A DNA stretch of 64,000 nucleotides from NCBI GenBank assembly GCA_964554805.1, contig CAZKPX010000001.1, positions 124,818 through 188,817 on the forward strand, read 5' to 3'. Of this stretch, positions 6,722-42,057 are shown one piece after another (the first letter of the stretch is position 1; every line of letters begins with the position of its first letter). Below the pieces are notes generated by a model that saw nothing but the letters and a program-made list of their open reading frames with translations, searched no databases and was not told the origin of the DNA. The position numbers and the translations under genes are program-made. Source of the DNA: an uncultured Candidatus Saccharibacteria bacterium (GTDB lineage: Bacteria > Patescibacteriota > CAZHWT01).

Positions 6722-7003
6722 TTATCTACCTGCCTTTCCGGCCTGCTTCTTGGCGTGAGTACGGAAGGTGCGAGTTAGGGAGAATTCGCCTAGCTTGTGG
6801 CCGACCATTGACTCCGTGACGAAGACTGGGACATGAATACGGCCATTGTGGACGCCGAAGGTATGTCCGACCATGTCAGGGCTGATAGATGAAGAGCGAG
6901 CCCAAGTCTTGATGACTTCTTTGGTGCCAGCTTGATTCATTTTCTGAACCTTGATTATTAATTTTTCGTCCAAATATGGACCTTTTTTGCTAGATCGAGA
7001 CAT
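6722..7003 (-). CDS. rpsS: 30S ribosomal protein S19
   Basis: [15 protein letters not shown]... S19. Confidence 0.9.
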
Positions 7004-7005
7004 AA

Positions 7006-7833
7006 TTATTTCCTACGACGAATAATAAGTTTATTTGAAGCCTTATTCTTCTTGCGAGTGCGGAGACCCATGGCTTTCTTACCCCAAGGTGTCTTAGGTG
7101 CCATACCGATACCGGACTTACCTTCACCACCACCATGAGGGTGAGCATTGGGGGCCATAGCCACACCGCGAACAGCTGGGCGAATACCTTTGTGGCGATT
7201 GCGACCGGCTTTGCCGATTTTGATCGTACCGTGCTGAGTATTGCTGACGACACCAATTGTAGCACGGCAAGACAAGTTAACCTGACGAACCTCGCCACTT
7301 GGCAATCGAAGCTGAGCTTTGCCGTTGTCTTTTGACATCAATTGGACAGAAGCTCCGGCTGAACGAGCCAGCTGGGCACCCTTGCCTGGAATAAGTTCAA
7401 TGTTGTGAACCACAGTACCGAGTGGAATCTGCTCTAGAGGCAGTGAGTTGCCGTTGGCGATTTCAGACTCTGGACCAGAACTGATTGGTTGACCAACTAC
7501 CATTTTGTCGGTAGCGATGATGTATCGCTTGTCGCCATCAGCATAGGCGACCATGGCGATATGAGCCGATCGGTTTGGATCGTACTCAATAGTCTTGACG
7601 ACGCCTGGCACACCAGTCTTGCGACGAGCGAAGTCAATTTCGCGATAGAGACGCTTGTGACCGCCGCCTTGGTGACGAACAGTGATGCGACCTTGGTTGT
7701 TACGGCCGGCCCGTTCTGACTTACCTTTGGTCTTGCTCTTGAGAGGTTTGACGTTCTTGGTTAGTTCGGGGTGTGTTAGTCCAGTGCGGTGGCGCTGACC
7801 TGGAGTAAGTGGTCGATAAATCTTGATAGCCAT
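7006..7833 (-). CDS. rplB: 50S ribosomal protein L2
   Basis: 275 aa with L2 motifs (GGGHKRLYR..., [10 protein letters not shown]). Confidence 0.9.
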
Positions 7834-32828: not shown

Positions 32829-34484
32829 ATGTCACAATCAGTGGGGCTAGGCAAGCCTGGCCAAAAACATGGGCTGCCTGAATCTAGCTTTACCCTCGGT
32901 CATACCGGATCTTCTGGGCAGATTTCTCCTGTTATTCAACAATTTATAGATTTACGCCAAACCTTGATTGGTCAGGCCGGATCCAAACAGCCGATGGTCG
33001 AGGTTAATGAGGCAGTAGGCATGTGGGCGTTTGCCTATGAGAAACTGCGCAATAGTGTTGAATATCGCGAAGAGACGGTATTGCTTCGAGCAGCTATTAA
33101 ACGTATTTTGAAACGACGACTGAGCCCTTTATGGAACTATGAATCTACTGCCAGCGCGCTGGTAAGAGAATTGATCTGGGCTCGATATTTGAAGAATGAT
33201 GCCGTGCCTCAGTCTAAAGTCGAAGAGATTGAGAAGTTGTTGGCCAAATATAGCGTATTGCGGCAAGCTATGGTGGGCAACAAAGAGGCGGAGGAATGGG
33301 AAGATTGGATATTGGGTATTGCGGCTTGTGATATTGAGCAGGTGTTGCTGAGTCGACAAGCTAGTTATGCCCTGGCAGAAGTGATGTTGCTGTGGTTGAA
33401 AGATAACATGGTGGTCAAGGGGATGCCGGCTGGAGATGTCGAGTTGCAATTGTATCTGGCGGTACACCGAACATTGCTCAAATCTGATCGCAGTCTATTA
33501 AACTATCATTTATTTTTGATAAATGTAGCTGGCTGGCATCAAGCTGACGAGAAAAAGGCTTTGGAGGTTGCTAAACAGCTGGCCTCAATACGCAAGAGAT
33601 TGGATGAGCAGCTTAACTACGAACATGGCCAGGCTTTGGCTAGAGCGGTTAAGAAGCAGACCCCACCTTTTATTGTACTGGATGATATAGTCAGCGCTAA
33701 TCTGGAGATGGCTACTGCGAATGTAGGAGATGCCGACACTCTTGATAAGAAGGTTGAAACGGTTTGCCAAAGCCGCTATCGGCAAATTGGCCAGCGTATC
33801 AGGACGGCTATTTTCCGAAGTATTATTTATATCTTTATTACCAAAGTTGGCTTGGCGCTATTGCTTGAAGTGCCGTTTGATAATTATTTTTATGGTGAGA
33901 TCCATTGGCCTCAACTGGCTTTTAATATTGCCTTTCCCCCACTGTTTATGGCTATTCTAGGTCTGAGCATCAAGACGCCGAGCGATAAAAATACAGAGGT
34001 CATAGGGCAAAAATTGCTGCGAATTGTGCAAGGGCTGCCTGATAAAGAGGTAATTAATCTGGATAATGGCTCATCACGGGCATCCGCTTGGTCGTGGATT
34101 TTCTTTGTAATATCTGCCGCGACATTTATTGGCGTATCGCTGCTGCTGTGGCAGTTCGACTTTACCATCATGGGCATTGGCTTATTCTTGTTCTTCTTCT
34201 GCGTGGTGGTGTTCTTTACCTATCGGGTGAGGCAGATTGCCCGCGAGATGAGCGTTATTCGGGAGAAGGAAAACTTTATAGAAAGTTGGATTACGATTAT
34301 TACTTTGCCATTTTTGGCACTTGGTTATCGATTATCAACCGAGTTCGGCAAGATCAATGTGACAACCTTTATTCTGGATGTATTGTTGGAAGCACCGTTT
34401 AAATTTATTCTGGATATGGCTGAAAGCTGGGTGAGTTTTGTTCGAACTAAACGGGATGAAGTGATTGATCGGCATGATTACTGA
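32829..34484 (+). CDS. Hypothetical protein (551 aa): soluble N-terminal domain of about 330 aa plus a C-terminal multi-TM domain
   Basis: Long ORF with no family recognised. It is followed by a GCGACGAG repeat and a hairpin. Confidence 0.5.
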   Translation: MSQSVGLGKPGQKHGLPESSFTLGHTGSSGQISPVIQQFIDLRQTLIGQAGSKQPMVEVNEAVGMWAFAYEKLRNSVEYREETVLLRAAIKRILKRRLSPLWNYESTASALVRELIWARYLKNDAVPQSKVEEIEKLLAKYSVLRQAMVGNKEAEEWEDWILGIAACDIEQVLLSRQASYALAEVMLLWLKDNMVVKGMPAGDVELQLYLAVHRTLLKSDRSLLNYHLFLINVAGWHQADEKKALEVAKQLASIRKRLDEQLNYEHGQALARAVKKQTPPFIVLDDIVSANLEMATANVGDADTLDKKVETVCQSRYRQIGQRIRTAIFRSIIYIFITKVGLALLLEVPFDNYFYGEIHWPQLAFNIAFPPLFMAILGLSIKTPSDKNTEVIGQKLLRIVQGLPDKEVINLDNGSSRASAWSWIFFVISAATFIGVSLLLWQFDFTIMGIGLFLFFFCVVVFFTYRVRQIAREMSVIREKENFIESWITIITLPFLALGYRLSTEFGKINVTTFILDVLLEAPFKFILDMAESWVSFVRTKRDEVIDRHDY

Positions 34485-34545: not shown

Positions 34546-34579
34546 TACGAAAAAGCGCTTGGATTGGTATCCAAGCGCT
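34546..34579 (-). terminator. Terminator of the tRNA cluster: 9-bp perfect hairpin AGCGCTTGG-loop-CCAAGCGCT followed by TTTTTCG on the minus strand
   Basis: Inverted repeat seen directly. It may also terminate the convergent 551-aa gene. Confidence 0.55.
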
Positions 34580-34610
34580 GTGGCCGAAATGGCCGGTGTC
34601 TCTGACCTTG

Positions 34611-34681
34611 AGCGGATGAGAGGATTCGAACCTCCAGCCTTCCCAGGAGTCGGGATGCTCTGCCTTTTGAGCTTCATCCGC
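34611..34681 (-). tRNA. tRNA-like gene with a non-canonical anticodon arm (4-bp stem, loop GACUCCU); isotype unassigned, possibly a pseudo-tRNA
   Basis: Perfect 7-bp acceptor stem (GCGGATG/CATCCGC). D arm GCTC-AAAAGGCA-GAGC. T arm GGAGG-TTCGAAT-CCTCT. The anticodon region is 2 nt short and lacks U33 and R37. Confidence 0.5.
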
Positions 34682-34697: not shown

Positions 34698-34773
34698 CGC
34701 CCGCAGAGGGATTTGAACCCCCGATCTGCTCTTTACGAAAGAGCTGCTCTAGTCCAGGCTGAGCCACACGGGC
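34698..34773 (-). tRNA. tRNA-Thr (anticodon CGU)
   Basis: 76-nt cloverleaf. Acceptor GCCCGTG/TGCGGGC, anticodon stem GCTCT/AGAGC, loop TTCGTAA, T loop TTCAAAT. No encoded CCA. Confidence 0.8.
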
Positions 34774-34817: not shown

Positions 34818-34891
34818 TGGGCGAGAAAGGATTCGAACCTCTGACCTCAGAACTGTCAGTCCTGCGCTCTTACCATCTGAGCTACACGCCC
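34818..34891 (-). tRNA. tRNA-Val (anticodon GAC)
   Basis: 74-nt cloverleaf. Acceptor GGGCGTG/CTCGCCC, D arm GCTC-AGATGGTAA-GAGC, anticodon loop CTGACAG, T loop TTCGAAT. Confidence 0.85.
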
Positions 34892-35211
34892 GTCTCCGTT
34901 TTGCCTTGGCTATATTGGCCTGGGCACATTTTCTTAGGGGAGGTAGTTGAGGAATACTCCTCAACTCCTCCTGCATTTACGCTCAACGATAACAGATAGC
35001 ATCGTGCATCAACAAACGATTTTCTCGGGGAAGACCTCGTTGGATGCTGGACCTATCTGCTGCTTCCGCTGTTCCGAGACGGCGCGCGAGCGTGTCTGAA
35101 TCTTATATCATGTTTATAAAATAGCTGTCAACAAGATGTTTGCACTACAATTAGTTGCATCGCATTGGTGACGAGGACGAGGAATGCCAATTTAAAAGCA
35201 CTTACGAGCCA

Positions 35212-39611: not shown

Positions 39612-41555
39612 TTACTGCAAAACCGCTTTGATGCGGACGACGTCTCGGGAGATTTTTTCGTCTTTTTGGATGGTAAACTTGCCTTCGATAAGGTTGGTAT
39701 TAGCTATGTGAGGGCCGCCGCAGAATTCTCGGGAATAAACTTGTTCGCGGGGGTCAATAGACTCAACTTGAGTGGCTTGATTGTTCTCGTTTGTAGTTGA
39801 CTTCTGTGATCCACCGATTGAGTAGACTTTAACTGTATCGCCGTATTTTTCGCCGAAGAGGCCGATGGAGCCGGATTTTTGGGCTTCTTGTAGCGGCAGG
39901 ATGGCATAGGAAACTGGTAAGGCTTCGGTTATTTTTTGATTGACGATGTCTTCTACTTGTTGCTTTTGCTCCGGAGTTAAGCGGTTTTCGGAAGTGAAAT
40001 CGAAGCGGAGTCGTTCAGGTGTAATATTGGACCCGCGCTGGGCAATGGTGTCCCCTACTACGTCTCGCAAAGCCTGTTGAAGGAGATGGGTTGCAGTATG
40101 ATACTGAACTTCTTTGAAACTGTCTCCGCCGAGTCCACCTTTGAACATGCCGGCTGAACCTTGGCGAGATAGTTCTTGGTGCTTAGTAAATAGTTCCTGG
40201 TATTTGTCTTGGATTTCCAAGCGATCATCGATTGAATATTGGTGAACATTTTCATTTAGTTCATCAATAAAGATGTCAGCTGGGAGACCGAAGGTTTGGA
40301 AGAAGTCAAAAGCCTTGGCTGCTACTTCATCTAATGTGGGTGTTTGACCGCTTAGATTTTTAGTGTATTTTTCAACTTCTTTTAATCCCCTATCGAGAGT
40401 TTGCAAGAATTTCTGCTCTTCTTCGACAAGCTGGTTGAGAATATTGTCACCCACTACTTGAGGATAGGCTTCGGCATATATATTTTGAATAGCCTTGCCG
40501 ACTTCATGTAAAAATGGCTTGTCTATACCGAGTTTCCGACCTTGTCCGATGGCACGTCGTATAACGCGGCGGAGAACATAGCCTTGAGTTTTGTTTGAAG
40601 GCGTTACGCCGTCAGACAATAACCAGATGGCGGCCTTAAGATGGTCTGCGATGACTCTGTAGGAGTATTCATTGCCCTGGTATGCTCCCAGATTGGCAAC
40701 GTTTTCTACGGCTTCAATGATGGGCCAGAATAGGTCGGTTTTAAATACATCCGGAGTATTCTGCTGGGCCGCAAGCATGCGCTCCAAGCCTCCACCAAAA
40801 TCAATATTCTTTTGAGGAAGTTGTTTAAAGCTGCCATCAGCTTGTTTTTGGTATTGCATGAAGACGTTATTGCCGATTTCGAGGTAGCGACCACAGTCGC
40901 AGTTGGGGTGACAATGAGGACCAAATTCTGGGGTATGCTCCACGTCTTCAAATTCATAGAATATTTCTGAGTCTGGGCCACCTGGCTCACCGACTGGCAT
41001 CTTGTCTGGAGTACCAGAGCGGGACCACCAATTCTTTTTGGCACCATAACTAAAGATTCGACCACCTTGCATGCCTTGCTGTTCAGCATTGTCGATGACT
41101 TTGGCATCTATGCCAACCGAAGCGTATAAATCTTCCCAAAGCATAATAGCTTCTTGATCTCGGTCAATGCCATTCGATCCGGCGAAGACGCTGACATATA
41201 ATTTGTGAGTATCTAGGCCGACTTCTTGAGTTAAAAATTCAAACATCCACTGCAACTGCTCTGTCTTGAAATAATCGCCGAGACTCCAGTTGCCCAACAT
41301 CTCGAAGACAGTGGTGTGGCGATTGTCGCCGACTTCTTCAATATCCTGGACGCGAAAACATCGCTGACTGTCGGCGATGCGGGTTCCTTGAGGATGAGCT
41401 TCGCCCAGTAGATATGGCAACATGGGCTGCATTCCGGATCCAGTAAAAAGGGTAGTCGGATCGTTGTCTGGCACTAATGGTGCCGATGGGACAATGGCGT
41501 GCTGCTTTGATTTATAAAAATCTAGATATTTTTGGCGAAGTTCATTTCCGGTCAT
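39612..41555 (-). CDS. alaS: Alanine--tRNA ligase (short form without C-Ala domain); start at the internal MTGNELRQKY
   Basis: N-terminal class-II catalytic domain (FTGSGMQPM, RCFRVQDIEEVG, WSLGDYFK) and an editing domain with HxxxH...CGGPH. Confidence 0.9.
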   Translation of the reverse strand: MTGNELRQKYLDFYKSKQHAIVPSAPLVPDNDPTTLFTGSGMQPMLPYLLGEAHPQGTRIADSQRCFRVQDIEEVGDNRHTTVFEMLGNWSLGDYFKTEQLQWMFEFLTQEVGLDTHKLYVSVFAGSNGIDRDQEAIMLWEDLYASVGIDAKVIDNAEQQGMQGGRIFSYGAKKNWWSRSGTPDKMPVGEPGGPDSEIFYEFEDVEHTPEFGPHCHPNCDCGRYLEIGNNVFMQYQKQADGSFKQLPQKNIDFGGGLERMLAAQQNTPDVFKTDLFWPIIEAVENVANLGAYQGNEYSYRVIADHLKAAIWLLSDGVTPSNKTQGYVLRRVIRRAIGQGRKLGIDKPFLHEVGKAIQNIYAEAYPQVVGDNILNQLVEEEQKFLQTLDRGLKEVEKYTKNLSGQTPTLDEVAAKAFDFFQTFGLPADIFIDELNENVHQYSIDDRLEIQDKYQELFTKHQELSRQGSAGMFKGGLGGDSFKEVQYHTATHLLQQALRDVVGDTIAQRGSNITPERLRFDFTSENRLTPEQKQQVEDIVNQKITEALPVSYAILPLQEAQKSGSIGLFGEKYGDTVKVYSIGGSQKSTTNENNQATQVESIDPREQVYSREFCGGPHIANTNLIEGKFTIQKDEKISRDVVRIKAVLQ

Positions 41556-41641
41556 AGTGATATCCTTGTAGGTTTGGATTATAAAGGTTACTTGGCTAGG
41601 ATACAAGCTTGATGATTTAAAGCTTATAGTTTGCATGCTTG

Positions 41642-41650
41642 TGGTATAAT
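41642..41650 (+). promoter_or_regulatory. Extended -10 element TGgTATAAT upstream of the 122-aa gene (divergent from alaS)
   Basis: gcttgTGGTATAATccgg, about 40 nt upstream of an AAGGAGAA RBS and the ATG at 41689. Confidence 0.4.
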
Positions 41651-41688
41651 CCGGCAGTAGGGCTTTAGGTTTATTCAAGGAGAAGACA

Positions 41689-42057
41689 ATGCCCAAACCG
41701 GTTGATCAGATATTACTGCTGGACGAACTGAGCACCTCTCAGATCGAATTCGTAAAATCTTTTGTAGATCAGTCCTCTCATGCAATTGAGGTGAGAAATG
41801 ACTCATCTGCTATAGGTGGATTACCGTTGATGGCTATTCACTGGGCCATGATTGAGACAATCGAGAATACCGGCTCGGCCTTACTATCTCACGCTCAACT
41901 GACCGGATTGGTTGCGCAGGCAATCGTAGACCACGGCTTGAGTGCTCGGAATGGCGAGACTGCCGAGCAATACGGTCTGAGAGCACTTGCTGCGCTGCAG
42001 CAAGATATAGACGACATGGAAAGGCTTCGTTGTTCGTCTTTATCGAAGCACAAGTAA
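41689..42057 (+). CDS. Hypothetical protein (122 aa)
   Basis: Strong RBS, ORF, and a terminator downstream. Confidence 0.45.
   Translation: MPKPVDQILLLDELSTSQIEFVKSFVDQSSHAIEVRNDSSAIGGLPLMAIHWAMIETIENTGSALLSHAQLTGLVAQAIVDHGLSARNGETAEQYGLRALAALQQDIDDMERLRCSSLSKHK

Follow-up and report, generated by a model that had tools for sequence, protein, structure and literature searches.

A tRNA-like gene with a glycine-type acceptor and a shortened anticodon arm in a tRNA operon of a Patescibacteria bacterium

The window, i.e. the whole 64-kb stretch of DNA that was analyzed, comes from the core chromosome of a bacterium of the Patescibacteria (CPR). Encoded in it are the S10/spc ribosomal-protein operons, tuf, rpoB/rpoC-sized ORFs, mltG, ruvX, alaS, ftsK, RNase J, PNPase, and infB. 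Near the genes alaS, ruvX, mltG, and an ftsA-like gene lies a tRNA operon consisting of tRNA-Val(GAC), tRNA-Thr(CGU), and a third, tRNA-like gene (X) with an aberrant anticodon arm (Table 1). Homologs of the proteins flanking this operon are labelled Patescibacteria, Paceibacteria, or Woesebacteria.

Table 1. Features of the tRNA operon. Positions are those of the window; L139 and L140 are contigs from Logan SRR28413663 that carry parts of a related operon (see below).
Feature	Position	Strand	Basis
Promoter-like site TTGACA, 18-nt spacer, TGaTATAAG	35102..35131	minus	read by eye; hexamers shared with L140
Structured 204-nt leader, promoter to tRNA-Val	34892..35095	minus	fold
tRNA-Val(GAC), canonical, first gene of operon	34818..34891	minus	ARAGORN; Rfam 66.5 bits
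tRNA-Thr(CGU), canonical, middle gene of operon	34698..34773	minus	ARAGORN; Rfam 56.2 bits
tRNA-like gene, 71 nt, Gly-type acceptor and contracted anticodon arm	34611..34681	minus	Rfam, fold
Acceptor 5' strand GCGGAUG, pairing with 34612-34618 (CAUCCGC); discriminator U73 = 34611	34675..34681	minus	sequence
Aberrant anticodon arm UCCCG-ACUCC-UGGGA, 15 nt instead of 17; loop ACUCC = 34646-34650	34641..34655	minus	cmscan, fold
T arm GGAGG-UUCGAAU-CCUCU, canonical	34619..34635	minus	Rfam alignment
Trailer AGAGACACC and small hairpin GGCC-AUUUC-GGCC	34582..34605	minus	conserved, aligned with L139
Intrinsic terminator, 11-bp stem, 4-nt loop, T-run	34546..34579	minus	terminator search; conserved in L139

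The near-consensus promoter-like site is located about 204 nt upstream of tRNA-Val. It was not flagged by a consensus promoter scanner, since its -10 hexamer ends in G; it probably acts as a promoter. The leader between this site and tRNA-Val folds with -72.7 kcal/mol (z=-4.42, 0 of 200 shuffles equally stable) and contains the near-perfect hairpin GGAGGAGUUGAGGA-GUAU-UCCUCAACUACCUCC. It has no match in Rfam and may represent either a processing leader or a small RNA that has escaped annotation. At the other end of the operon, a terminator stem-loop at 34579-34554 and a T-run downstream of it lie on the strand of the tRNAs, in agreement with a preliminary description of this DNA that had placed the tRNA-like gene as the 3'-most of three tRNAs beside a terminator. 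Because of the promoter-like site upstream and the terminator after the third gene, the three genes are likely to form one transcription unit (Val-Thr-X), in which the tRNA-like gene would be co-transcribed with tRNA-Val(GAC) and tRNA-Thr(CGU). The trailer preceding the terminator may be a processing or terminator-associated element. CCA is encoded in none of the three tRNA genes. In the cmscan alignment of tRNA-Val(GAC), a U6.U67 mismatch is flagged in the acceptor stem of this nonetheless high-scoring gene.

In RNA sense, the tRNA-like gene reads GCGGAUG AA GCUC AAAAGGCA GAGC A UCCCG ACUCC UGGGA AGGCU GGAGG UUCGAAU CCUCU CAUCCGC U. It is matched end to end by the Rfam tRNA model RF00005 (model positions 1-71) with a score of 50.6 bits, compared with a gathering score of 29, and with E-values of 1.5e-9 in a local scan and 6.8e-8 for the whole window. 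The Rfam models of mascRNA and tmRNA gave no match at this locus, to which the tRNA model alone was assigned. All 16 base pairs of the acceptor stem (7), D-stem (4), and T-stem (5) are formed with zero mismatches, and the conserved nucleotides A14, A21, G18G19, U54-U55-C56, and A58 are kept. Retained tertiary contacts include the Levitt pair A15:U48 and the triples A9:A23:U12, G10:C25:G45, and C13:G22:G46. Among the tertiary-contact nucleotides, the sole exception is position 8, which is A instead of U. A8 is discounted as a defect, because it is also found in otherwise normal tRNAs, including a tRNA-Gly(UCC), among the matches listed in a metagenome pattern scan. Stems and conserved loop nucleotides were checked for scattered further degeneration outside the anticodon arm, and none was found. 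The 601-nt sequence from promoter to terminator is base-for-base identical in two independent assemblies, Logan SRR16798008 and SRR16798009; the lesion in the anticodon arm is therefore real and not an assembly artefact. The feature is thus confirmed as a genuine tRNA-shaped gene that had been described accurately, and the full pairing together with the RF00005 alignment bears out that its acceptor, D, and T arms are canonical.

The sole irregularity in the RF00005 alignment lies in the middle of the anticodon hairpin, where the gene has 7 nt and the model 9. This gap matches the earlier statement that the region between the D and T arms is 2 nt too short. ARAGORN, which had been named as a check in the preliminary description, called both neighboring tRNAs and skipped the tRNA-like gene, whose computed fold is a near-cloverleaf with a short arm. 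The unconstrained minimum free energy structure (RNAfold) has -28.5 kcal/mol, and a cloverleaf lies within 0.4 kcal/mol of it. With an anticodon arm of 5 bp, including a closing G.U pair, and a 5-nt loop, the cloverleaf has -28.1 kcal/mol; with a 4-bp stem and the 7-nt loop GACUCCU it has -27.4 kcal/mol. The latter had been proposed as the best fold. It indeed lacks both U33 and a purine at position 37, having A33 and C37 in this register, but it is slightly less stable than the fold with the 5-nt loop. As an isolated element, the arm also forms 5 bp and a 5-nt loop (-4.7 kcal/mol). Pair probabilities in the arm range from 0.72 to 0.99, the value for the closing pair G31.U37 being 0.72. The sequence Y32-U33-NNN-R37 cannot be obtained in any register of the loop, and the combination of a 5-bp anticodon stem with a 7-nt loop, U33, and purine 37 that is expected of a decoding tRNA is not present.

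The acceptor of the tRNA-like gene carries G1-C72, C2-G71, G3-C70, and U73, which are experimentally defined glycine determinants in bacteria (PMC9976931, Table 1); the combination of U73 and G71 is stated to be exclusive to tRNA-Gly (PMC9976931). Because of this acceptor set and the UCC in its loop, the gene is identified as derived from a tRNA gene of the Gly(UCC) type. Of the two identities considered in the preliminary description, Glu(CUC) and Gly(UCC), the latter is retained. CUC would be the anticodon in the 7-nt register, but a Glu identity is at odds with the Gly-type acceptor and also with the D arm, which is unlike that of tRNA-Glu. Judged by these sequence features, the ancestry of the gene is of the tRNA-Gly(UCC) type and not that of a tRNA-Glu. 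With bacterial tRNA-Gly(UCC) of the glyT-type elongator class it shares the acceptor set, UCC in the loop, the canonical T arm, a D arm GCUC/GAGC with G18G19, and a variable region of 5 nt. Normal tRNA-Gly(UCC) genes from metagenomes (L023/L083/L122) share the 5' half A8A9-GCUCAA...AGAGCA with it. In contrast to these tRNAs, the anticodon arm comprises 15 and not 17 nt, and U33, R37, and the register of C35/C36 are lacking. Bacterial GlyRS uses C35 and C36 as determinants. A CC is present in the tRNA-like gene, but it cannot be placed at positions 35 and 36 of a 7-nt loop on the observed stem. As C35/C36 are out of register, glycylation of the RNA is predicted to be impaired.

Conversion of a canonical NUUCCRN loop into the present one requires at least a 2-nt deletion plus the loss of U33, i.e. 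two or more events. The simplest route starts from a Gly(UCC) loop from which AA was removed and U33 was also lost. An ancestor connected by one step, namely an Arg(CCU)-like arm that lost 4 nt, was rejected, since the implied ancestor would be 2 nt too long. The loop also contains the anti-Shine-Dalgarno-like motif CUCCU, which was treated as coincidental, as it is entailed by YUCC.

Relatives of the locus were located via homologs of both flanking proteins, the closest ones having about 70% protein identity. In relatives with 54-65% identical flanking proteins, the ftsA-like, 520-aa-family, and 551-aa-family genes are adjacent and co-oriented, and tRNA genes are absent from the syntenic locus in L003-L008, L141-L142, and L212-L215. 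As the loci of these relatives are free of tRNA genes and their genes are co-oriented, the operon is regarded as a lineage-specific insertion accompanied by an inversion of the 551-aa gene. In L004, L007, and L008, this gene comes immediately after the 520-aa-family gene and has the same orientation, and the tRNA operon of the window sits at the inversion junction. The 551-aa protein (32829-34484, plus strand), whose gene is turned around in the window compared with these three relatives, is conserved in CPR bacteria and has no Pfam domain. No ortholog with the sequence or the acceptor identity of the tRNA-like gene was found among the relatives sampled, of which the closest have about 70% protein identity.

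A related operon was found in a single sample, Logan SRR28413663, in which the flanking proteins are 68-70% identical to those of the window. It is represented by the contigs L139 and L140, both of which break inside a tRNA. The promoter hexamers of the window operon are conserved upstream of the tRNA in L140, and trailer and terminator are identical in 50 of 59 positions (85%) between the window and L139. The 3' half of the terminal tRNA in L139 is identical to the tRNA-like gene in 27 of 46 positions (59%), with differences in the acceptor strand and the T arm. The terminal gene has thus diverged faster than the non-coding trailer, which suggests relaxed constraint. The terminal tRNA of L139 is itself irregular. 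Its anticodon loop GAGCUAC has A33 instead of U33, its T stem contains a U.C mismatch, and its anticodon arm can close as a 6-bp stem with a 5-nt loop. The trailer motif AGAGACAYCGGCC-loop-GGCC is conserved at about 70% identity of the flanking proteins, beyond the conservation of the terminal tRNA itself. The leader in L140 comprises about 300 nt, has little similarity to the leader in the window, and shows no significant fold (z=-1.6). The contig ends L140 7370-7412 and L139 2510-2558 overlap by 10 nt (CAGAGGAGCU) inside the anticodon arm. The 5' acceptor half CGGGAUG in L140 does not pair with the 3' half GGCGCCC-G or CGCCCGC-U in L139, which suggests two tRNA genes sharing their core, or two strains. 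A homolog search with a 140-aa ORF of L139 yielded a self-match only.

Genes with shortened anticodon arms were also found in other bacteria. A scan of 185,579 species genomes, in which the window's own genome is absent, for Gly-type acceptors with a gap of 25-26 nt between D-stem and T-loop yielded 10 matches, none of which is an ortholog of the tRNA-like gene. Among the tRNA genes retrieved are L014 4812-4882, L009 3132-3202, and L013 7139-7213, all with 6-nt anticodon loops. The first of these, from an Actinomycetota MAG, is a Gly-type gene with the loop CUCCAA; the loop CUCAAC also occurs in this set, and ARAGORN reports 2-nt anticodons. The 6-nt loops are sporadic 1-nt deletions in unrelated phyla. 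As Gly-type genes that are 1-2 nt short occur in unrelated phyla, such lesions apparently arise as ordinary accidents. The metagenome pattern scan used a loose pattern and returned mostly coding sequences among the matches listed; ranking the retrieved tRNAs by their identity to the tRNA-like gene is uninformative, as the set is biased by the search patterns.

The closest parallel is encoded in another CPR bacterium, Candidatus Uhrbacteria UBA12432 (L015, DOJV01000023.1), in which two tRNA-like genes lie next to each other at 6867-6938 and 6947-7016, preceded by the promoter-like sequence TTGACA-N17-TAATAT. Pairing is complete in their acceptor, D, and T stems, while the anticodon arm is 2 nt short in the first gene and 5 nt short in the second. 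The first gene (55.1 bits) has the Gly-type acceptor GCGGGAU...AUCCCGC-U and the 15-nt arm CUUGU-CUCUG-GCAAG with a wobble closing pair, and it is called Arg(UCU) with a 4-bp stem by ARAGORN. The second gene (41.2 bits) combines a Glu-like body with an anticodon arm of 12 nt. The first gene thus resembles the gene in the window in its acceptor type and its wobble-closed 15-nt arm, and both loci share a CPR host, perfect acceptor, D, and T arms, and an upstream promoter-like site; the stem sequences, in contrast, show no homology, and the second gene with its Glu-like body and 12-nt arm differs further. The pair hints at a recurrent and possibly selected class of anticodon-short tRNA-like genes. 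It was found with a pattern demanding the same geometry as that of the gene in the window and is subject to ascertainment bias.

Taken together, the gene is probably a recently disabled, redundant copy of a tRNA of the Gly(UCC) type, i.e. a non-decoding relic that is drifting and not a conserved functional RNA, a reading that is held with modest confidence. With its anticodon hairpin shrunk to 15 nt, the RNA would be unable to present a normal anticodon on the ribosome, and this contracted arm is the kind of lesion that abolishes decoding and marks a relic. As the last cistron of a presumably active Val-Thr-X operon, the gene would still be transcribed. RNase P and 3' processing would release its RNA from the transcript, and CCA would be added. 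These steps are expected because the acceptor/T minihelix and the D/T elbow are intact, and they follow general rules of tRNA processing. Transcription, processing, loss of decoding, and relic status are all read from the sequence in this way. The relic reading is favored because no conserved ortholog was found among the relatives sampled, because the counterpart in the related operon has been outpaced in conservation by its own trailer, and because similar sporadic lesions occur elsewhere. Of the readings offered in the preliminary description, a pseudo-tRNA fits best, as the arm lacks a canonical anticodon, no ortholog was found among the relatives sampled, and the terminal tRNA of the one related operon is a different one. 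Another of these readings was a tRNA that needs editing; we know of no precedent for insertional editing of a bacterial anticodon loop. Like tRNA pseudogenes and "undetermined" tRNAs with indels in the anticodon loop, the gene has a single local lesion abolishing the anticodon and no ortholog in the relatives sampled. In contrast to tRNA pseudogenes, it shows no other decay and is still part of an intact operon with conserved promoter and terminator. tRNA genes with a disabling indel in the anticodon loop are already known, and the gene described here is a new, unusually clean instance in an unusual host.

A working tRNA-Gly(UCC) is presumably encoded elsewhere in the genome. Within 20 core ORFs of the window, GGA is used 99 times and GGG 21 times, i.e. 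in 120 of 9,599 codons. Use of these codons in core genes requires a competent Gly(UCC) decoder, and as the RNA encoded in the window is unlikely to be one, a paralog elsewhere is implied. The converse, that the gene is itself a working decoder with an unconventional loop, either as a reader of GGA/GGG or as a frameshifting (doublet-reading) tRNA, is highly improbable. It would account for the Gly-type acceptor, the UCC in the loop, and the use of GGA and GGG, and neither ARAGORN nor Rfam detected another tRNA-Gly in the 64-kb window. This last result says little, since the window is a fraction of the genome, and the RNA has no U33 for a U-turn, no purine 3' of the triplet, and a predicted loop of 5 nt. 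To our knowledge, there is no functional precedent for a 5-nt anticodon loop.

Against the relic reading, the body of the gene is flawless, and every change falls within the anticodon loop, a pattern that resembles selection on the body more than it does neutral decay. Dead genes are also unlikely to be retained for long in the streamlined genomes of CPR bacteria, and the Uhrbacteria pair hints in the same direction. The gene might instead encode a functional non-decoding RNA whose acceptor/T half is used off the ribosome, a reading that is considered unlikely but not negligible. Such an RNA might be glycylated and serve a tRNA-dependent transferase as donor, either for cell-wall cross-bridges or for the aminoacylation of lipids; alternatively, a protein that handles tRNAs might be bound or titrated by it. 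The closed anticodon hairpin would exclude the RNA from translation. The pristine body including the covarying A15:U48 pair, the complete glycine acceptor set with its U73 and G71 stated to be specific for tRNA-Gly (PMC9976931), and the near-consensus promoter-like site shared with two essential tRNAs are all consistent with such a function. So are the two anticodon-truncated but otherwise perfect tRNA-like genes of the Uhrbacteria, another CPR lineage, and the ability of the terminal tRNA in the related operon to form a 6-bp stem with a 5-nt loop. Ascertainment bias weakens the former parallel, however, as the search pattern demanded this geometry, and the counterpart in the related operon differs in acceptor and T arm. 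No ortholog sharing the sequence or the acceptor identity was detected among the relatives sampled. In addition, the GlyRS determinants C35/C36 are out of register, and a Pfam survey of 36 ORFs in the window revealed no Fem, MprF, or other tRNA-dependent transferase domain. A precedent for a tRNA-Gly that is partitioned from the ribosome exists in Staphylococcus, where non-proteogenic tRNA-Gly species serve as pentaglycine donors for peptidoglycan and are kept from translation (PMC7826273). They have a normal anticodon loop, changes in the D and T stem-loops, and weak EF-Tu binding (PMC7826273). The gene in the window has the opposite pattern, i.e. canonical G18G19 and UUCGAAU and an aberrant anticodon loop, and does not match this type; the staphylococcal tRNAs would be a functional analogy if the off-ribosome reading is right. 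A tRNA-shaped upper half with a reduced or missing anticodon arm is also known from the tRNA-like domain of tmRNA, bacterial Y RNA (YrlA), and mascRNA, but unlike the gene in the window these belong to larger RNAs or are distinguished by additional domains. A more general and still more doubtful version is that expressed tRNA-like RNAs without a decoding role are maintained as a class in Patescibacteria, with an intact body, often a Gly-type acceptor, and a short closed anticodon hairpin. Independent examples would be the gene in the window, the two Uhrbacteria genes, and the terminal tRNA with a 5-nt loop in the related operon, and the RNAs would have roles off the ribosome, for example in carrying aminoacyl groups for the modification of the envelope, or in occupying tRNA-binding enzymes as ligands or decoys.

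Two further explanations concern the origin of the lesion and of the locus. Loop-only changes with an untouched body would be explained without invoking selection by a single event, such as the imprecise loss of a group I intron from the anticodon loop or another complex indel, by which 2 nt were lost and non-canonical loop bases were left in one step. Such a rearrangement scar would be a mechanism by which the relic originated and not a separate function. Group I introns are frequent in the anticodon loops of Patescibacteria tRNAs (PMC13011429), and the locus is rearranged, as seen from the inverted 551-aa gene. On the other hand, no intron-bearing tRNA-Gly was found here, "Gly" is absent from the text of PMC13011429, and no intron remnant is recognizable in the 7 nt, which makes this route improbable. 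Even less credible, and the least probable of all readings, is an integration site (attB) or a tRNA remnant associated with a mobile element, which had been among the options of the preliminary description. The 3' ends of tRNA genes are common integration sites, and the operon is missing in most relatives. The gene is of full length, however, and the 22 nt at its 3' end are not repeated in the 64-kb window, even when 3 mismatches are allowed. Domains of integrases or phages were absent from the Pfam survey of the 36 window ORFs, and the operon is surrounded by core chromosome. Within the window, this reading is thereby largely refuted. Pattern scans of viral contigs gave no tRNA-like matches, so that a phage origin is not supported either.

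If the gene is a relic, as favored here, its significance is that of an annotation issue, since tools based on covariance models call a tRNA that ARAGORN skips, and it should be flagged as non-decoding; it would also be a record of tRNA-operon turnover in a reduced CPR genome, at a core locus that has been rearranged. If the gene is maintained instead, it would add a rare natural case of a tRNA body uncoupled from decoding, in hosts with poorly known envelope and translation biology, and its Gly-type acceptor on a closed anticodon hairpin would be a handle for finding off-ribosome uses of aminoacyl-tRNA in CPR bacteria. In the unlikely case that the genome has no other reader of GGA/GGG, the gene would challenge the rule of a 7-nt loop with U33. 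The literature on tRNA-like RNAs of CPR bacteria was searched, and nothing specific was found. Among the neighbors of the operon, the AlaRS ORF (39612-41696, minus strand) encodes a protein of 694 aa with catalytic and SAD domains that seemingly does not have the long C-terminal region of a typical bacterial AlaRS, and the homolog in L140 comprises 654 aa.
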